64,000 nt of DNA, from the sequence record NC_048731.1. One strand, given 5' to 3'. Position 1 is the first letter of the stretch. Each line of letters begins with the position of its first letter. Shown here one piece after another: positions 13,751 to 52,492 of this stretch. Below the pieces are notes generated by a model. It ran no database searches. It was given only the letters and a program-made list of their open reading frames with translations, and was not told the DNA's origin. A program made the translations under genes and the position numbers. Origin of the DNA: Escherichia phage fp01.

Positions 13751-15654
13751 TTACCGTAAGCCATTAATTTGATCATTATTTAAAGCCCTATACCATACTC
13801 GGAAATTCTTAATATGATATACAAATTTAGAAGGGGTAGGAGATGGTGATGCACCTAACCTAGACGGAATACCTGTCAAACTCACGGGAGTACTAGTAGA
13901 TTTAGCAGTTTTACCATTAAAGAAATTACTAATCTCATTCCCTGTTATTTTTTGAGCATAGGTCATAGGAGGTAGACTTTCTATATCTGGAATAGCTAAG
14001 GTTGGCCCTGTACTAGATCTATATGTTCTTATAGTGGCATTATCAGCGCTATCACAGCGGCAGATAATGTCATACTTAGAACCTCTTACTTGCATAACTT
14101 CTACATAACTAGTATAAGGTCGTACTTTACAATTAAATTCAAAAGATACTGTGCGCTCAAAGTAGTCCGCCAGGGTTCTATAGCCGGCATTATCTGGTAT
14201 ACACCACCATTCATCTGCTGTTCTAGTAGTGGTGGTATCAGTGCTATTACGGATGTAAGAAGTTGGAGCTATGCCTTCCTCAACCTGTATACCCCAAATG
14301 TAGAAACCAGAAACACCATCCCCCTGGTAGACAGTAGTATTGGTATTTTTAGCCATCTGGAGTCTAAATATAGTGCTTCGACTTTCAGTGGCTGCAAAAG
14401 AAACCCAAATTCTATATATACCTCCAGTTAATCTCTCATACCCCCCTCTAATATTACTAGCAGAACCACTTGTAGCAACAGTTTCATTTTTAATATCAAA
14501 AAACATACCAACAGTTGTACCGGAAGCTACACGTAGATATACTAAACGGTTAGCGGTATCATCTTTAACATAAGCAGAATAGCAATAAAAAGTATCAGCA
14601 GTCAAAGATATCCATTTATCGTTGCAGTAATGCTCGCCGTCATTGGTATTCTCGGTAAACTTAGTCATCAACATTTCGCCAGTCGGGCACGCCGAAGCAT
14701 TAGGAGTTGTAATAACTAGACTACCTCCAGTAATTGCTTCTGAATTAGTATATAAATTAGTGCACTGAGACTCCATTAATAAACCTTGCTTTTCAAATCT
14801 AGGTTCATTAATATCTGCAAAACACATTTTACCACTTTTATCTATATAACTGGCGGTAGTTGAGCGAGTAAAATTTGCAGATTTTGTTGGCAATTCCAGA
14901 GTTACATCATTAATTGTTGCTAAATCGTAGGGGGCCATACCAGATAATAATCTCATATCATCAGTTAAAGGTACCCAAACATCCGGATAAGGGACAGGTT
15001 CATACATAATAATACTAGCAGCAGAAGCAGCGGCGGCAGCTTCAGAAGCTTTAGCATTAATTTCAGAAGCTTTAGCGTTAGTCTCTGAAGCTTTAGCATT
15101 AGTCTCAGAAGNNNNNNNNNNNNNNNNNNNNNNNNNNNNNNNNNNNNNNNNNTTTTACTTGCTAATGCATTAGTTTCGCTAGTAGCAGCATTAGTTTCCG
15201 AGGTTTTAGCTTTGGTTTCACTAGATTTTGCATTAGTTTCTGATGCTTTTGCATTAGTCTCGGATGTTTTAGCCTTAGTTTCACTAGCTTTCGCATTAGT
15301 CTCAGATACTTTAGCTGCTGCGGCTGATGCTGCAGATCTATCCGCTGATGCAGCAGATTGAGTAGCAGATGTAGCGGACTGAGTGGCAGAGGCTTCAGAA
15401 GCTCCAGCAGAAATAGCAGCTTCCTGTTCAGAATCCTTAGCATTAAGTTCTGAAGTCTTAGCAGCTATCTCAGAAGCTTTTGCAGCTGCAGCAGATTTAG
15501 CCGTAGCCTCAATAGAGGATACTAATTCACTTGCAGTAATAGAGCTAATAGAATTACCTAGAGTTACAGTATATCTAGGAAATTTACTAGCAGTAGCTTT
15601 AGTATCATCAATATTTAATATCTGTTGTACAATAATCTTAGTAGTTACTGCCAT
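13751..15654 (-). CDS. L-shaped tail fibre proximal protein (interrupted by assembly gap; true length unknown)
   Basis: Reading upstream of the Met at 15007 in the same frame stays open through the 21-nt repeats to the gap; beyond the gap the N-terminal part starts at 15654. Track ORFs 13751..15007 and 14965..15654 are therefore one gene. Confidence 0.55.
15040..15310 (-). repeat. tandem 21-nt repeats encoding 7-aa units (SETNAKA-like)
   Basis: At least 10 copies of 'GCATTAGT(C/T)TC(A/G)GA(A/T)GCTTTA'-like units on the plus strand, encoding 'ASETNAKASETKAKTSETNA...'. Confidence 0.8.
15112..15152. other. assembly gap (41 N)
   Basis: Run of n inside the tandem-repeat region; length is not a multiple of 3, so the downstream frame in the track is artefactual. 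Confidence 0.95.
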
Positions 15655-43963: not shown

Positions 43964-44121
43964 TATTTGAGATCCTCCAAAGCGTATAAACCTTTGCCAT
44001 CATTGCAGATTATTACTGCTTCTGAATAGGTGGCATGATATTCGTTTGCCGCTTTTACCCATTGCTCGATCTTTTCGATCGTGTCGTGGGTAGCTGGATG
44101 ATCGTTATATATTGTTTGCAT
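43963..44121 (-). CDS. hypothetical protein (52 aa)
   Basis: ORF 'MQTIYNDHPATHDTIEKIEQWVKAANEYH...' translationally coupled to the next gene. Confidence 0.25.
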   Translation of the reverse strand: MQTIYNDHPATHDTIEKIEQWVKAANEYHATYSEAVIICNDGKGLYALEDLK

Positions 44122-44583
44122 ATCGTCGATTCCTTATAATGAATAAGTTTACCGCCGATAGGCTTTTAAGATATACCCAATTTTTAAAGAGCGCGGCGGT
44201 AAACTCCCCGCCGTGTAGTTCGTCATTGCCGCCCTACGAGATAAATAATAACAAACAACGAAAAAGGCGCAACCTTATATTTGTAAAGAAATGTAAAGAC
44301 AAAATCCACCGGACACCGTGCGGCGATCTGGGCGCGACGGCCTAAAATTAAAAGAAACGGGCGCGCGAATACCACAAAACACAGCAGATAAGCAAGTAAT
44401 TTTTTCATTTATATTTGCTTTGCCCTACTTGACAAAATCTAAAAAGCTCGTGGCGACGATAAACGACGTGGCCCCTTATGATTGGATGGCTAAAAACTTT
44501 ACTGCGTTCTGGGGCGTTTCAGGCCGCTTATTTTCGACTTAACAAATCATTAACAAACGCAAAATTGAAAAATAGTTGGAAAA

Positions 44584-44609
44584 GGTCTTGACTTTTAAAA
44601 ATCAAGACC
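44584..44609 (-). terminator. hairpin downstream of HNH gene
   Basis: 'GGTCTTGA-(10 nt)-TCAAGACC'. Confidence 0.4.
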
Positions 44610-44633
44610 AAATGACTTAATTTATTAAATTAA

Positions 44634-45152
44634 TTAATTGACAATTCCAAATTCAGCTTTTTTAGTTTCAAGCCATAATAATAACTCTTGTAAATCATAA
44701 CCTGACTTACTAACACGCTTGTTAGTAATAGGATTCTTAATTTGAGCAGTCAAATAGTCACGCCCGTAACTATCACGGGGGCGAACTTTATTAACGTAAA
44801 TGTTTTTAGGGATACCATTAGCACGCTTACAGTTTTCATACTCACTAGGAGTACGATTATAATTATTCTGCGAACTATCAACCGCGCGAAGATTCCAGAT
44901 GTTATTATTACGAGTGTTACGATCGATATGATCAATCATTAGCTCGCTATCTATACCGCCATTCATTATACAAAAGATAATTCTATGTACTTTTAACTGT
45001 CCCATGCCTAATAGTTCAACTTGCCAATAATTACCATTTAAACCACCTGCGACGGCGTGATCTTCCCGCCAACGTAAAAATGATAACGCTGTTTCATCAT
45101 AATAAAAGTAACTATTAAAAAGATCATAATCTATATCTTTATATTTACCCAT
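44634..45152 (-). CDS. HNH homing endonuclease
   Basis: 'IDHIDRNTRNNNIWNLRAV' HNH motif; gene is markedly AT-richer than its GC-richer surroundings. Confidence 0.65.
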   Translation of the reverse strand: MGKYKDIDYDLFNSYFYYDETALSFLRWREDHAVAGGLNGNYWQVELLGMGQLKVHRIIFCIMNGGIDSELMIDHIDRNTRNNNIWNLRAVDSSQNNYNRTPSEYENCKRANGIPKNIYVNKVRPRDSYGRDYLTAQIKNPITNKRVSKSGYDLQELLLWLETKKAEFGIVN

Positions 45153-45717
45153 TGTTATAGTTTCCTTATGTTATTAATTTAATCTCTATTATATTATATC
45201 AAAACAATTAGCAGACTAGCTAATGAGTTTTTCAGGTTTAATTAGCAGACTCATAATCACTCTAAAAACCTATTAGCCAACTAACTATATTTTATTATAT
45301 AATAACTGTATAAATTAGTTAGTGAGAACCACTATCATTTAAGTTACCCACAGCCTTATACATTTTGTAAAATAATTTGACACAATAGGCGGCGATATGA
45401 GGGCTTTTACACAGACTTATCCACAGGTTATTCCACTGTATAAATATACAGGGTAAAAAGGTAGTGTTAACAACTGCAATCAATTTTAAGCGGCCTAAAA
45501 CGCTTTCTAACGAGCTAAACGCTGCGGGGTAGTATTAAAGTAAAGCCTTCACCCGTCGGCCTGGTGGCTTCGCCGTGTCTTGCTCTTTACTACACCGCTG
45601 CGCGGTTAGCATAAAACTAGGTGTTAGGCAAGGAAAATAAAAAAGTAAAATAATCTTTGCCTATGCTAGAAAATTACCCTTATCATTCACTCACCGATTA
45701 ACGAGGGAGGCCAACAA

Positions 45718-46704
45718 ATGCGGCTATATAAACCAGATAACGCAACCGTCTTAAAAGGTGCGCTGCGTAACCTGCTGGACGGTAGCAGAACAACCAGCAT
45801 TAAACATTTTGTTTTCAATATTGAAACTATTCATCAAAACTTTTTTGATGATTATGATGCTTACAATATGAATAGTTTTCTACCGTTATATAAGCAAGGG
45901 GCAACGCTTGTTTTATATAATCAGGATTATCAATTACTTACTAGTAGGGGGCCGGATACTGATTTCATAGTCGTAAAAGGCAACACAGTAAAAGCCTATG
46001 ATACTGGGGCGGGCTTAGAAGTTTTTTCAATAGAAAACTATGAAGCCAATGATAATGATCTTTATGACGTAGAAAATTTTCTTGATTCATTTTGGCGTTA
46101 TTTATCAGTTGGCTGGAATCGGTCGGATTCTGATGGGTATCGTTTTGCGGCTATAATGGCCTTTGATGATAACGGTAATTTTTTGCTACCGTCGGAGTTA
46201 TATAATCGGGTATATGAAGGCGATATTGTTGACGCCGGATTTTCTTTCGAAAGGGAAGAAAGTATTGACAGTATAGAAAAACATGCTGTAAATTCTAACA
46301 CTAAAAGCGTTCACACTCAAACTACTGAAAACAAAGGAAAAAATGCCATGACCAAGATCGCTAACATCGTTGCCGCCAATAAGTCTGCCGTTGTAAACGC
46401 TGCAAAACTGGAAGCGGGTAAAATTGCACTGACTCAAATTACGAAAGTAGCGGCTAAAAAAGCACCGTTCATGATCAAAGGCTATATTGATACGCCGATT
46501 GGTCGTGTAGTGATCGCTAACCTGCTGAGTGTAGCGGTTGACCAGTACGCCCCGAGTAACCAGAAAGCGAAAGCGGTAGCAGGGGCGGCTATGGAAGCGG
46601 CGATGTTGGAAATGGTGCAAAGTTTTAACATCGCTGAGATGATTGATGAAATGGTAAAAGGTATCGATATTTCTACTTTCACCACTAACACCGAAAGCGA
46701 GTAA
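45718..46704 (+). CDS. hypothetical protein, acidic N-terminal half and Ala/Lys-rich C-terminal half
   Basis: 328 aa; RBS 'GAGGGAGG'; first gene of a tightly packed plus-strand operon. Confidence 0.6.
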   Translation: MRLYKPDNATVLKGALRNLLDGSRTTSIKHFVFNIETIHQNFFDDYDAYNMNSFLPLYKQGATLVLYNQDYQLLTSRGPDTDFIVVKGNTVKAYDTGAGLEVFSIENYEANDNDLYDVENFLDSFWRYLSVGWNRSDSDGYRFAAIMAFDDNGNFLLPSELYNRVYEGDIVDAGFSFEREESIDSIEKHAVNSNTKSVHTQTTENKGKNAMTKIANIVAANKSAVVNAAKLEAGKIALTQITKVAAKKAPFMIKGYIDTPIGRVVIANLLSVAVDQYAPSNQKAKAVAGAAMEAAMLEMVQSFNIAEMIDEMVKGIDISTFTTNTESE

Positions 46705-46768
46705 TAATAACTAGCGGGGTAACAATCCCCGCTTTACTATTCCCTTGTTAATTAATAGGAGGCTAATT

Positions 46769-47086
46769 ATGCAGCTTAACAAAAAAATGCTAGAACAATT
46801 GCGGGGTAGAATCCAGCGCGATGACTACCCTCACATTAATTATTCTTCGGAAGTAGTAGACACTGCCGATTCATGGAAAAAAGCAGGTTACCCCTATGTA
46901 TGGCAACATGCAGAAAGCGCAAACGGATTCCATGCCTTTCGTGATTTAGGTCATGGAAAACTTTGCGTTTTTAAAGGTGAGTTATTAATAGGAGTATCAG
47001 AATCGGAAGTAATCACGGATGAGGTTGTATTCTTAGACAATGACCAATATGAAACAGGCAATCAGTTTTATTTTCCCGCTAATTAA
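46769..47086 (+). CDS. hypothetical protein (105 aa)
   Basis: Start 'MQLNKKM' preceded by 'TTAATTAATAGGAGGCTAATT'. Confidence 0.55.
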   Translation: MQLNKKMLEQLRGRIQRDDYPHINYSSEVVDTADSWKKAGYPYVWQHAESANGFHAFRDLGHGKLCVFKGELLIGVSESEVITDEVVFLDNDQYETGNQFYFPAN

Positions 47087-49158: not shown

Positions 49159-49360
49159 CCGCGCCCGCGATGGTTAGCCTGCTAATGGTTAGGGTGTTAC
49201 GTGTCGCCTTGTGTGATCGTTAGCGAGCTAACTAATTTTCAAGCCTCCTCCAATTTTGCCCTTGTTTTAGTATCCCCACCAAAATTAAACGCGTTAGAAT
49301 GCGTTTGAGGGCGTTTTAGCGGTATATTAGAATTATTCACTGCGTAGGAATACTGTATAT

Positions 49361-49460
49361 TTATCCAGTAGGATAAGCTGTGGATAAGTCTGTTGATAAC
49401 GCTTCAAAACGGCTAGGATTTTGTCAAGTCAAATCGTGCTGTTGATAAGTCTGGGGATAA
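49361..49460. promoter_or_regulatory. cluster of DnaA-box-like 9-mers
   Basis: 'TGTGGATAA' (perfect complement of TTATCCACA) plus 'TGTTGATAA' x2, 'TGGGGATAA', 'TTATCCAGT' within ~100 bp. Confidence 0.6.
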
Positions 49461-49485
49461 CTTAAATAATAGTGTTTCTCACTTC

Positions 49486-49740
49486 CGTTCTTAAATGCGA
49501 ATCATTATCATTTGCATTCCACTTCCTGAATAAGAATCATTCCACTATCTAAACGATAATCATTCCACTTCCTGAATAATAATCATTCCACTATCTAAAT
49601 AAGAATCATTCCACTATCTAAACGATAATCATTCCACTTTTTAAATGAGATTGATTCTCATTCCACTTTCTAAATGCGAATTATTATCATTCGCATTCCG
49701 CTTTTTAAATGAGAATGATTCTTATTATCATTCGTATTTA
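49486..49740. repeat. tandem iteron-like ~23-bp repeats
   Basis: About 8 head-to-tail units of 'CATTCCACT(A/T)(T/C)CT(A/G)AA(T/C)(A/G)A(T/G)AAT' with variants. Confidence 0.8.
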
Positions 49741-49765: not shown

Positions 49766-50369
49766 TGTGCAAAACCGACATTGCTCCACGGGTGTTACGT
49801 GCGGGCGTATGTGCAAATCCGACAGGATTTTTGGTAGTGTGCAAATCCGACCCGAAAAATTTTTATAGTGTGCGAATCCGACAATGAATTTTTCCAAAAA
49901 CTCCAGCAATCCGATGCTGCGCATCAATCCTGTGGAATTAACTAGAATATGTGCAAATCCGACATGAGTTTATTTGTGCGAATCCGACAAGATTTTTGTG
50001 ACTTCGATTGGAGGGTGTGTGATTGTGTGGGTTTGGGGAGAAGTTGAGAGAGCGAGGGAAAATTAGGGGAGAAGCTAGAGAGGCGCATGTTTGGTGCGGG
50101 GGCACCCGATTTGCGGGGATTTTGGGGAAGAGTTGAGAAGATTTGGGTTAATTTGAGATTAGTGGAGATAAAGTAAAATTTTATTAGCTAAATGGGGCAA
50201 AATAGCTTGACAAGTGAAAATTCTTGTGGCTCTAAAAACTCAGGCAATCATGGGCCTTCGGCCCGAAATAATGCTGCCATTTTCAAGAGATTATGTGTCC
50301 ATGAAAACTTAGGCAATTGTGCAAATCCGACCATAAATTTCTAGAAACACAATGTGCAAATCCGACAGT
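49766..50369 (+). repeat. eight dispersed direct copies of a 14-nt motif
   Basis: 'GTGC(A/G)AA(A/T)CCGAC(A/C)' at ~49767, 49811, 49840, 49871, 49950, 49977, 50320, 50353, all on the same strand. Confidence 0.8.
50000..50200 (+). repeat. purine-rich G-tract region with 3 copies of 'GGGGAGAAG(T/C)TGAGAG'-like unit
   Basis: Strong G+A skew on plus strand; G-runs 'GGG','GGGG','GGGGG' spaced by short linkers. Confidence 0.7.
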
Positions 50370-50914
50370 AAAATCCAGAAATGTGTTTTCAAAAAATGTT
50401 GTCTAGAAATAACCGCCCTCCCCATAACCGCCCTGTATTAAACCGCCTAGTATATGTTCCTAGAAACTTAGGAGAACCGCCCACTAGAAGTGTGATATCT
50501 CGTGAGTATTTCGTGAGAACTCTGGAGTTTCTAGGAAAGTGTTGTGCCATCCTAGCAGATGAGCGGCAACAGGTGTATCATCTTGAATGTAAATTATGTG
50601 GTCAAAAGTTTTACTTTTATTTTAAATATAAGATCCCCCAGGGTTCTCATATAGAGCTTTGCCCCCGCCAGAAGGTCTCGTGATGTTTCTAGCAATTTAT
50701 ATTAAATTACTTATTAACTTGTCCTGTCGCTCCGTATCCTCCGCTACAAGTTAGTAATTTTAAATTACTGAACCACCACACCTTCTGTGTGGCAACTCTA
50801 AATGGTTAATTCTATTAACTCATAGAGTTATGATAACATACATTTAGCTATCTGTCAACGAGAGTTTGTATTTGAGTCTCGGTACAGGTATTGTGCACCG
50901 AGACTTGCAGGATC

Positions 50915-51799
50915 TTACAGTAACTCTTGGTATGCTTTTTGATACGCCTCAGTGTCCGTAGGTGTACCTTTTGCAATGGCTATTAATTCATCTGTAATCT
51001 GAATATTCGTATTATAACGTGAGTGGAACTCGTCAGGAATTTCTAGATACCTATTGATGAATGCTGCAGCAAGCGGTGAAGCTACACCCATTTCTAGAAC
51101 CCATCCAACATGGTTTTCAAATTTCAGATAAGGAGAATCAGATGGGATTGGTGGGGTTACATCAATTTTCTCTGGTTCTTTTTCTGGAAGCAACGGATTA
51201 TTATATAATGCTTCATCTGGAAGCACAGATTTACGCTCTTTAAATATATAAGTTTCTAGATCAGATGCTTTAGATCCTGAGTATACAGCAAAGATGCTAG
51301 CTTTACCTTGTGATGCTCTAACTGGTAGATAACTAGTAGGATAGCTTCTTAATGCATCATGGAATGGACTTCCTGAATATTTGTACGTATCCCCATAGAG
51401 ATCGTCAATATTCATTCGTTCATCTTCAAAAATGTGAAATGACTTAAATGGTGGAATGGTGAAGTATTCCATCTGTAATCCATAAACTAAGAAACGATGT
51501 GCATATGCACTGATTTTTAAGACTGTGAATGCTTTTTCACCTTCTTTATGGGCATTGCCCTTTGAAGTAACTGGGTAACGTTTACAAAACATCTCTACTA
51601 GACGTTTCTCATTAAGACTAAGGGTGGAGTACAGTCGTCCACTTAACCCTATAAGTGCATCGAACATAAATGCTAGTTTATCTTTTTCTTCTTGGGTTAG
51701 TTCAGGAAACGGAAGTACTTTAGCATTAGGAACACTATTATTCTCCTTTGCCTTTACTTTGCCAGCATTTTGTCTTAGTTTATCTTTAAAGTTATACAT
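50915..51799 (-). CDS. hypothetical early protein (294 aa)
   Basis: Long ORF, first gene of the minus-strand early block after the repeat region. Confidence 0.55.
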   Translation of the reverse strand: MYNFKDKLRQNAGKVKAKENNSVPNAKVLPFPELTQEEKDKLAFMFDALIGLSGRLYSTLSLNEKRLVEMFCKRYPVTSKGNAHKEGEKAFTVLKISAYAHRFLVYGLQMEYFTIPPFKSFHIFEDERMNIDDLYGDTYKYSGSPFHDALRSYPTSYLPVRASQGKASIFAVYSGSKASDLETYIFKERKSVLPDEALYNNPLLPEKEPEKIDVTPPIPSDSPYLKFENHVGWVLEMGVASPLAAAFINRYLEIPDEFHSRYNTNIQITDELIAIAKGTPTDTEAYQKAYQELL

Positions 51800-51877
51800 T
51801 ATTTATCTCTCATTTTTAAGGTCTGGATGACCTTCTTTTTATTTTAGAGCCTCCGTAGAGGCTCATGTATTAGAGGA

Positions 51878-52492
51878 TTAGCTACCTCTCTTATCCTCGT
51901 CGATAACAGCTCCCAACGCCTCCATAATAGCATCTTCTAAGCTTCCATGCTTACTAGGATTATTAAAATGAATAGTACAAACAGAACTCCTAGAAACTCC
52001 AGCATCCGCAGGTGCTACGCTTCGCATATCAGATTCAAAAGCTTCTTGAGTATGTTTCAGCTGTACAGAAGGGCCGTAGTCTTCACCAAACTTATATGAC
52101 TGCGTACTACTTACCACACCCCCACAAGGAACATTGTGCATATCCGACATTAATCTTTTATCGGAGTTATTCAGCATTGAGATTGTCCCTGACTGCCACG
52201 GATCTCTAATAGTCACTGGAGTACTGGGGCGATTCACCTCGGTCTTCACAAGTTTGTACCCTGCATCGATTAATGCGTTAATTAGATTATCAGCCGGGAT
52301 GCGAGCCTTGCCAAAAATCTTACGAGCATCTTCGAGCTTATCCTCAAGATCTTTACATGCTCTAAGGTCATTGTGTGCAAATGTTAGCTTCATAGATTTG
52401 AATTGTACAGTAGCAGTTAAATCTTTAAAGCTATAATCCCATGTGTTCAGTTCATGATCTGGTACTACTTGAATAGGTTGTTGTGTAAACAT
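51878..52492 (-). CDS. hypothetical early protein (204 aa)
   Basis: ORF. Confidence 0.5.
   Translation of the reverse strand: MFTQQPIQVVPDHELNTWDYSFKDLTATVQFKSMKLTFAHNDLRACKDLEDKLEDARKIFGKARIPADNLINALIDAGYKLVKTEVNRPSTPVTIRDPWQSGTISMLNNSDKRLMSDMHNVPCGGVVSSTQSYKFGEDYGPSVQLKHTQEAFESDMRSVAPADAGVSRSSVCTIHFNNPSKHGSLEDAIMEALGAVIDEDKRGS

Follow-up and report, generated by a model that had tools for sequence, protein, structure and literature searches.

The divergent hegG-gene 011 intergenic region of Escherichia phage fp01, a counterpart of T5 Repeat Region 2, carries paired DnaA boxes beside a LexA-like palindrome

The 565-bp intergenic region at positions 45153-45717 of a 64,000-nucleotide stretch of Escherichia phage fp01 (sequence record NC_048731.1; this whole stretch is the window, and all coordinates refer to it) has its closest described counterpart in phage T5. 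The T5 first-step-transfer (FST) DNA is the first to enter the cell and carries the pre-early genes (T5 annotation AY587007). Davison (bioRxiv 10.1101/866236) described an IRC-spacer-IRD arrangement in T5 'Repeat Region 2' and regarded IRD'-spacer-IRC' as the probable core of the injection stop signal (iss). The same 2020 preprint gives the DnaA box consensus as TT(A/T)TNCACA, reports that an eighth DnaA box is destroyed in T5-type phages and that some T5-like phages have neither IRC nor IRD, and, citing origin mapping, places the T5 origins near the genome center; it mentions neither LexA nor SOS. Three T5 records (AY587007, AY543070, AY692264) annotate one promoter upstream of gene 011 and another just upstream of hegG, the latter lying 9-83 nt upstream of the gene in AY543070 and AY692264. 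Klimuk et al. describe T5 pre-early primer-extension products from 'P11'. A 2026 preprint names three T5 FST promoters as experimentally characterized, one of them 'upstream of gene 011', and describes as viable, with small plaques, a T5 mutant lacking the stretch from hegG to gene 017. T5 Repeat Region 1 contains the strong promoters P-H22 and P-D/E20. On the host side, the published LexA consensus is TACTG(TA)5CAGTA, in which the CTG-CAG spacing is invariably 10 nt.

Our analysis indicates with high confidence that 45153-45717 is a divergent pre-early control region of a T5-like phage, acting as DNA and not as a long RNA leader. The 565 bp exactly span the gap between two start codons, those of a minus-strand gene at 44634-45152 and a plus-strand gene at 45718-46704. 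The former encodes an HNH homing endonuclease (Pfam HNH_3, E 4.8e-12) and shares its length of 519 nt and its position with T5 hegG (T5.010), and the latter encodes a DUF7566 protein (Pfam, E 1.7e-111), the homolog of the 37-kDa pre-early protein annotated in T5 as T5.011. The region thus separates two divergent genes, in contrast to the first-pass annotation, made from the sequence alone, which had taken it for a leader in front of one plus-strand operon. A megablast search with 44600-46800 returned 416 phage records, all T5-like and from Salmonella, Escherichia and related hosts, headed by Salmonella phage NR01 (93.5%) and then T5_ev219, with T5 itself at 87%. The T5 counterpart lies at 5.4-7.4 kb of AY587007, within the 10.1-kb left terminal repeat that is the FST DNA, and 45153-45717 matches the T5 annotation one to one, being the equivalent of the hegG-gene 011 intergenic region there. 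Placed in the pre-early region between the HNH gene or Repeat Region 1 on one side and the gene 011 homolog on the other, the sequence stands where T5 Repeat Region 2 stands; the region is already known, having been annotated and published in T5 under that name together with its pre-early promoters. The earlier statement that no open reading frame of meaningful length is present holds: the only frame of at least 30 aa, on the minus strand at 45319-45483, has 54 aa and a TTG start; its variable columns are distributed 28/28/27 over the three codon positions, and it was rejected as coding. Conservation along the region has its maxima at IRC, IRD and the -10/leader segment, with a dip at a GC-rich hairpin segment. 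What we establish here is the homology, the repeat geometry, the conservation of motifs and promoter, and the absence of an RNA-structure signal.

The pre-early promoter of the gene 011 homolog (P11) was placed at 45632-45693 on the plus strand by promoter scan, conservation and T5 annotation. It comprises an A/T-rich tract (45632-45656), a -35 element TTGCCT (45657-45662), an 18-nt spacer, a -10 element TATCAT (45681-45686) and a predicted start near A45693; hexamers and spacing are of the sigma-70 type, and the site coincides with the promoter annotated in T5. TTGCC, TATCAT and the 18-nt spacing are invariant in 27 distinct relatives. From the A/T-rich tract to the ATG, fp01 and T5 are nearly identical (4 differences in ~90 nt) and share TTGCCT and TATCAT, with the difference that the start has been reported in T5 and is predicted in fp01. 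Two unrelated upstream/spacer cassettes, AAAAAGTAAAATAAT... and AAACCTTTTCTTTTTT..., occupy 45632-45680 as a mosaic across Tequintavirus and Epseptimavirus; that these cassettes swap while -35 and -10 stay fixed points to recombination within the gene 011 promoter, and it is the pattern that a functional promoter would predict. Since the conserved promoter lies ~25-60 nt before the ATG, the long leader of the first-pass annotation shrinks to a predicted 5' leader of ~25 nt (45693-45717, plus strand), with a Shine-Dalgarno sequence GAGGGAGG at 45703-45710, 7 nt before the ATG. The leader core CACCGATTAACGAGG is identical in 16 of 17 aligned relatives, the 16 that keep gene 011, and in an alignment anchored on this core the majority fraction over 45692-45711 is 0.97. 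The suggestion of promoters in the same annotation was well founded: this is a divergent pre-early promoter region, for which the T5 records annotate one promoter per side. The promoter scan also returned weak promoter-like sites upstream, at 45274-45303 (plus strand) and at 45470-45443 (minus strand).

The central element of the region is the 131-bp IRC-spacer-IRD module (45321-45451), identified through the T5 IRC/IRD annotation and present as an inverted copy at 49353-49483. Both copies measure 131 bp and are 76-87% complementary; the partner, arranged IRD'-spacer-IRC', belongs to the injection-stop region, where 49351-49483 also holds a stronger LexA-like box, TACTGTATATTTATCCAGTA, and DnaA-type boxes. 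The module shows the highest conservation in the region and is the only part of the query still found by sensitive blastn in Demerecviridae of Klebsiella, Pantoea, Pectobacterium and Vibrio. IRC and IRD each carry one pair of DnaA boxes with a 3-bp gap. The IRD pair, on the plus strand, consists of two consensus boxes, TTTTACACA (45405-45413) and TTATCCACA (45417-45425), separated by gac, and is conserved in 56 distinct modules (30 region-2 and 26 iss versions). The IRC pair (45344-45364, plus strand) is box-like, with TTACCCACA (one mismatch, 45344-45352), gcc and TTATACATT (45356-45364), the last degenerate as in T5; relatives carry TTATCCACA-N3-TTATCCACA at this pair. Region-2 and iss versions together share the blocks AGTGAGAA-CACTAT-ATTTAAGTTATCCACA, TTGAC and TTAT-CACAGACTTATCCACAGGTTATCCTACTGTATAAATATACAG, and paralogs within a genome are less alike than orthologs between phages, indicating that the motifs are kept by selection and not by gene conversion. 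The conserved TTGAC of the spacer was considered as a -35 element and discarded, no -10 element being found at 16-18 nt in either paralog.

At the IRC end stands a second small palindrome, TAGTG-N5-CACTA (AGTGAGAACCACTA; 45323-45337 and 49467-49481), which is conserved in both paralogs and across genera and for which we know of no binding protein. To the right of the partner module we noted a 23-bp tandem array, CATTCCACT... (49515-49675), and eight copies of TGTGC(A/G)AATCCGAC (49810-52154), both corresponding to direct-repeat families annotated in the T5 injection-stop region.

Compared with T5 Repeat Region 2, the fp01 locus has the same position and flanking genes, the same 131-bp module with an inverted injection-stop partner, DnaA boxes likewise paired at a distance of 3 bp, an eighth box degenerate as in T5, and the element IRB' (45484-45509), a small hairpin AAGCG-N8-CGCTT recognized from the T5 annotation and the sequences. 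It differs in nucleotide identity (~87-93% to the named relatives), in the distance to the partner (3.9-4.1 kb here, 3.18 kb in T5), in point changes and indels within the GC-rich segment, and in a more diverged IRB partner. The latter, an inverted copy at ~44508-44533 to the left of the HNH gene, matches IRB' at ~18/26 positions, with 16/17 in the core.

Eight base pairs beyond the IRD boxes, the module ends in a LexA (SOS) operator-like palindrome, CACTGTATAAATATACAGGG (45434-45453), of the form CTG-N10-CAG with an AT-rich center and 16/20 matches to the LexA consensus. The injection-stop copy TACTGTATATTTATCCAGTA (49351-49370) is a better match (18/20), and the T5 iss copy TACTGTATAAATATACAGTA (AY587007 9330-9349), annotated simply as 'palindrome D' with no explanation, reaches 19/20. 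The palindrome is conserved in relatives beyond its flanking sequence. A pattern search of IMG/VR fixed only the DnaA box and the left half-site, and in all distinct homologous instances (~39) the right half is kept at N10, reading CAG except in two with CAA. Copies in region 2 finish with CAGGG, those in the iss with CAGTA, and variation is concentrated at the central positions. TACTG-N10-CAGTA occurs in Pectobacterium My1, Pantoea AAS21, Klebsiella Torridgeon and phage Eos, and CACTG-N10-CAGTA in Vibrio VspSw_1. Full-text searches pairing LexA with T5 or Demerecviridae, which did not extend to the T5 papers of 1987, 2005 and 2015, brought up nothing relevant, and priority is uncertain.

The two LexA-like sites resemble E. 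coli SOS operators in their CTG-N10-CAG form, their AT-rich center and scores inside the range of genuine operators on the scale given below. They differ from such operators in that they overlap no conserved promoter, form an inverted pair 4 kb apart and belong to a strictly lytic phage. The nearest host parallel is E. coli uvrB/DARS1, where DnaA boxes likewise lie close to a consensus-type LexA box and an interplay of both proteins is possible. The uvrB boxes, however, overlap known promoters and a DnaA-reactivating site, whereas the fp01 order is box-3 bp-box-8 bp-LexA-like box, set in a long inverted repeat with no demonstrated promoter.

These features can be combined into a tentative mechanism. 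Two predicted sigma-70 promoters face outward, leftward to the HNH endonuclease gene (next to 45152) and rightward to the gene 011 operon, and the module between them may be a landing pad for host proteins present at the time of DNA entry, namely DnaA and probably LexA. Module and inverted partner, ~4 kb to the right, bracket the rightward pre-early operon (011-017), and the bound modules might help in organizing the FST DNA, or in anchoring, looping or insulating it, while injection is paused. Both the protein binding and the role in the pause are inferences. We propose, as a possibility that we would not yet call likely, that the module is a composite site for host DnaA and LexA, and that palindrome D may be a genuine, previously unreported LexA site with a part in the pausing, anchoring or insulation of the DNA that enters first. 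In region 2 the module is accessory, not essential, given the T5-like phages without IRC and IRD and the viable hegG-017 deletion of T5. T5 grows on recA cloning strains, so LexA cleavage is not strictly required, for example as a trigger of second-step transfer.

Several points qualify these interpretations. As to the control region, promoter positions in fp01 are predictions or transfers from T5, the equation of the 'P11' of Klimuk et al. with the T5.011 promoter depends on the name and on the statement in the 2026 preprint, and a longer transcript could, strictly speaking, still start at the promoter-like sites upstream. As to the composite site, two counts speak for the LexA-like box. A score modeled on the heterology index is 5.4 for 45434-45453 and 1.2 for 49351-49370, against 0.4-9.6 for 20 E. 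coli operators and 4.8 for the best of 200 randomized windows, and the window has three occurrences of CTGTAT-N4-ATACAG at one mismatch or fewer, where 0.18 are expected, two of the three being the module sites. Against this, of the operator sequences behind the scale only the uvrB box, besides the consensus, was confirmed by a paper, and the two module sites are paralogs and not statistically independent. The viable T5 deletion is given only as running from hegG to gene 017, and a phage protein, for instance A2, could be what binds the palindrome. The third CTG-N10-CAG match of the window, AGCTGTATACTTATCCAGAA (2040-2059, score 8.4), apparently lies in coding sequence and is probably due to chance.

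Davison's own model takes IRC-spacer-IRD as a second injection-stop or anchoring site, whose boxes bind membrane-associated DnaA and, together with the partner, hold the FST DNA until A1 and A2 release it. The family-wide presence of paired DnaA boxes with fixed geometry in both paralogs agrees with it, as does an unexplained second FST band near 5.8 kb, reported in 1979 and cited in that preprint. The model is purely sequence-based, however, and the BF23 authors remark on the missing experiments; T5-like phages devoid of IRC and IRD, and the viability of the hegG-017 deletion, which should remove the module, tell against it, and the LexA-like palindrome is left unaccounted for. We regard this model as possible and rather doubtful.

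A proposal of a different kind is that palindromes and repeats are sites for phage proteins, such as the DNA-binding protein A2 or the nuclease A1, and that the resemblance to LexA operators is coincidental. Of the pre-early genes only A1 and A2 are essential, second-step transfer requiring both (2026 preprint), Davison proposes cleavage at a palindrome in this area, and any dimeric protein would preserve a palindrome. Yet the agreement with the host consensus is very close, at 19/20 for T5 and 18/20 for the injection-stop copy of the window, the spacing is exactly 10 nt, the neighboring sites are host DnaA boxes, and the variation lies where LexA tolerates change; we consider a chance resemblance unlikely.

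The composite DnaA-LexA site that we propose must also be distinguished from an SOS operator of the ordinary kind. Here the LexA-like box would control a leftward promoter (-35 TTAACA at 45470-45465, -10 TATATT at 45448-45443), and host LexA, together with DnaA on the boxes just downstream, would keep leftward pre-early transcription low until the SOS response is induced. The promoter scan gives a 10/12 match with the -10 inside the palindrome, the GTGTTAACAACTGC segment is conserved in most Tequintavirus sequences, and LexA and DnaA boxes coexist at E. coli uvrB promoters. T5 and the injection-stop copy, however, do not conserve this minus-strand site, which overlaps the box: another sequence stands in place of the -35 region in T5, that region is altered in Epseptimavirus, and the better LexA-like copy in the injection-stop region has neither a comparable -35 nor a downstream gene. 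The known strong leftward pre-early promoters, P-H22 and P-D/E20, lie elsewhere. We consider such an operator quite improbable.

The first-pass annotation had pointed to nested complementary segments and to a structured 5' untranslated region (UTR) or small RNA. The quoted strings are indeed present (AGTAAAG at 45539-45545, GGCCTGGTGGC at 45558-45568, CTTTACT at 45585-45591), within a variable GC-rich segment at 45512-45612 (plus strand), and a repeat search found a longer imperfect complementary pair, CGCTGCGGGGTAGTA/TACTACACCGCTGCG (45520-45534/45588-45602); folding, covariation and conservation gave no evidence of function for this segment. The complementarity does not exceed chance, folding energies lying within the shuffle range: a 146-nt stretch folds at -42.5 kcal/mol, compared with -40.0 +/- 3.8 kcal/mol for dinucleotide shuffles (z -0.66; 44 of 200 shuffles equal or better), its opposite strand gives z -0.55, and 12 of 200 shuffles equal the 101-nt core in stability (z -1.78). 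The proposed check by folding and covariation across related phages found no conserved structure. For the minimum-free-energy structure of the window, 17 distinct Tequintavirus versions gave a paired fraction and covariation score equal to the column-shuffle control and 1 compensatory cell in 576, in a test whose low power (the sequences are 93% identical on average) is a further point against our interpretation. RNAalifold preferred another fold, in which the covariation term was -0.37 kcal/mol and no pair was compensatory.

Comparison among relatives gave the same picture. The 5' arm varies (GCTGCGGGG, GCTATAGGG, GCGGTGGGG, GCTGTAAGG) with an invariant 3' arm, CCGCTGCGCGG; the hairpin core is absent (35-nt gap) and its 5' side replaced in most Epseptimavirus relatives, NR01, Spc35 and Sw2 have a duplicated or rearranged core, with a CC(T/A)GGTGGC unit in duplicate, and 45512-45612 has the lowest conservation and the most indels in the region. 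Fold z-scores range from +0.14 to -4.1, and a hairpin conserved in structure and divergent in sequence across genera was rejected, z being about 0 in Epseptimavirus (+0.14 to -0.2) and a strong hairpin occurring only in NR01. A scan of 44000-47000 against Rfam at a permissive E-value found no match inside 45153-45717, its seven weak hits (E 1.6-9.8) all lying in flanking genes and under the gathering score; ARAGORN found no tRNA or tmRNA, and a terminator scan found no terminator-like site, which argues against a stand-alone small RNA. Because the GC-rich segment lies upstream of the conserved -35 and -10, it is probably outside the gene 011 transcript altogether. The GC-rich 'hairpin' is fast-evolving spacer DNA between module and promoter, and a structured-RNA interpretation of 45153-45717 is not supported. 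The window sequence can form a 34-pair structure (-36.7 kcal/mol), a far stronger hairpin (-50.9 kcal/mol, z -4.1) stands at the same place in NR01, the closest relative, in Epseptimavirus the equivalent position is taken by a different 9-bp inverted repeat, GCGTTTTCT/AGAAAACGC, and the promoter-like site at 45274-45303 could in principle yield a long leader; this last site is, however, restricted to phages with the HNH insertion, and with the shuffle-level folding and covariation, the unequal arms and the conserved promoter downstream of the segment, it is very improbable that 45520-45602, or the whole region, is a transcribed structured 5' UTR or small RNA regulating the plus-strand pre-early operon.

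Some further observations concern the GC-rich segment. The unit CC(T/A)GGTGGCTTCGCC at 45552-45580 is duplicated in some relatives (Sw2, Spc35, NR01), and its version in AZ23, GCTGGTGG, matches Chi exactly; the versions elsewhere differ from Chi by one base. The idea of a Chi site for CCTGGTGG was unsupported, exact Chi occurring twice in the 64 kb (0.83 expected) and neither time in the region, and CCTGGTGGCTTCGCC, considered as a dispersed repeat, is present in a single copy in the window.

On the left side of the region, the HNH gene promoter is predicted approximately at 45161-45235 on the minus strand (TTGTTTTGATATAATATAATAG), its position being transferred from the T5 annotation. A repeat search found two exact copies of AATTAGCAGACT, 34 bp apart (45206-45217 and 45240-45251), of which the first belongs to a palindrome, ATTAGC-N6-GCTAAT (45207-45224). 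The copies occur only in phages carrying the HNH insertion, and repeat and palindrome could be an operator in the HNH promoter region or a homing-site remnant. Farther left, beyond the HNH gene, a 40-nt inverted repeat with 88% complementarity (43716-43755/44154-44193) matches IRA/IRA' of T5 Repeat Region 1. Elsewhere in the window, 41 consecutive N (15112-15152) point to an assembly gap or a masked stretch.

For the biology of these phages, constraint in the non-coding 45153-45717 falls on DNA motifs and promoter elements and not on RNA pairing; the RNA finding as put forward opens nothing new, the region being known. A near-consensus LexA-like site beside DnaA boxes, present family-wide, offers a cheap and direct test bearing on the mechanism of the T5 injection pause, a question that dates from the 1960s, and we see the LexA-type palindrome as a modest but testable side lead. 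If the site is genuine, it would link T5 two-step injection or the pre-early program to the DNA-damage state of the host, and A1-driven degradation of host DNA by the phage could be what removes LexA.

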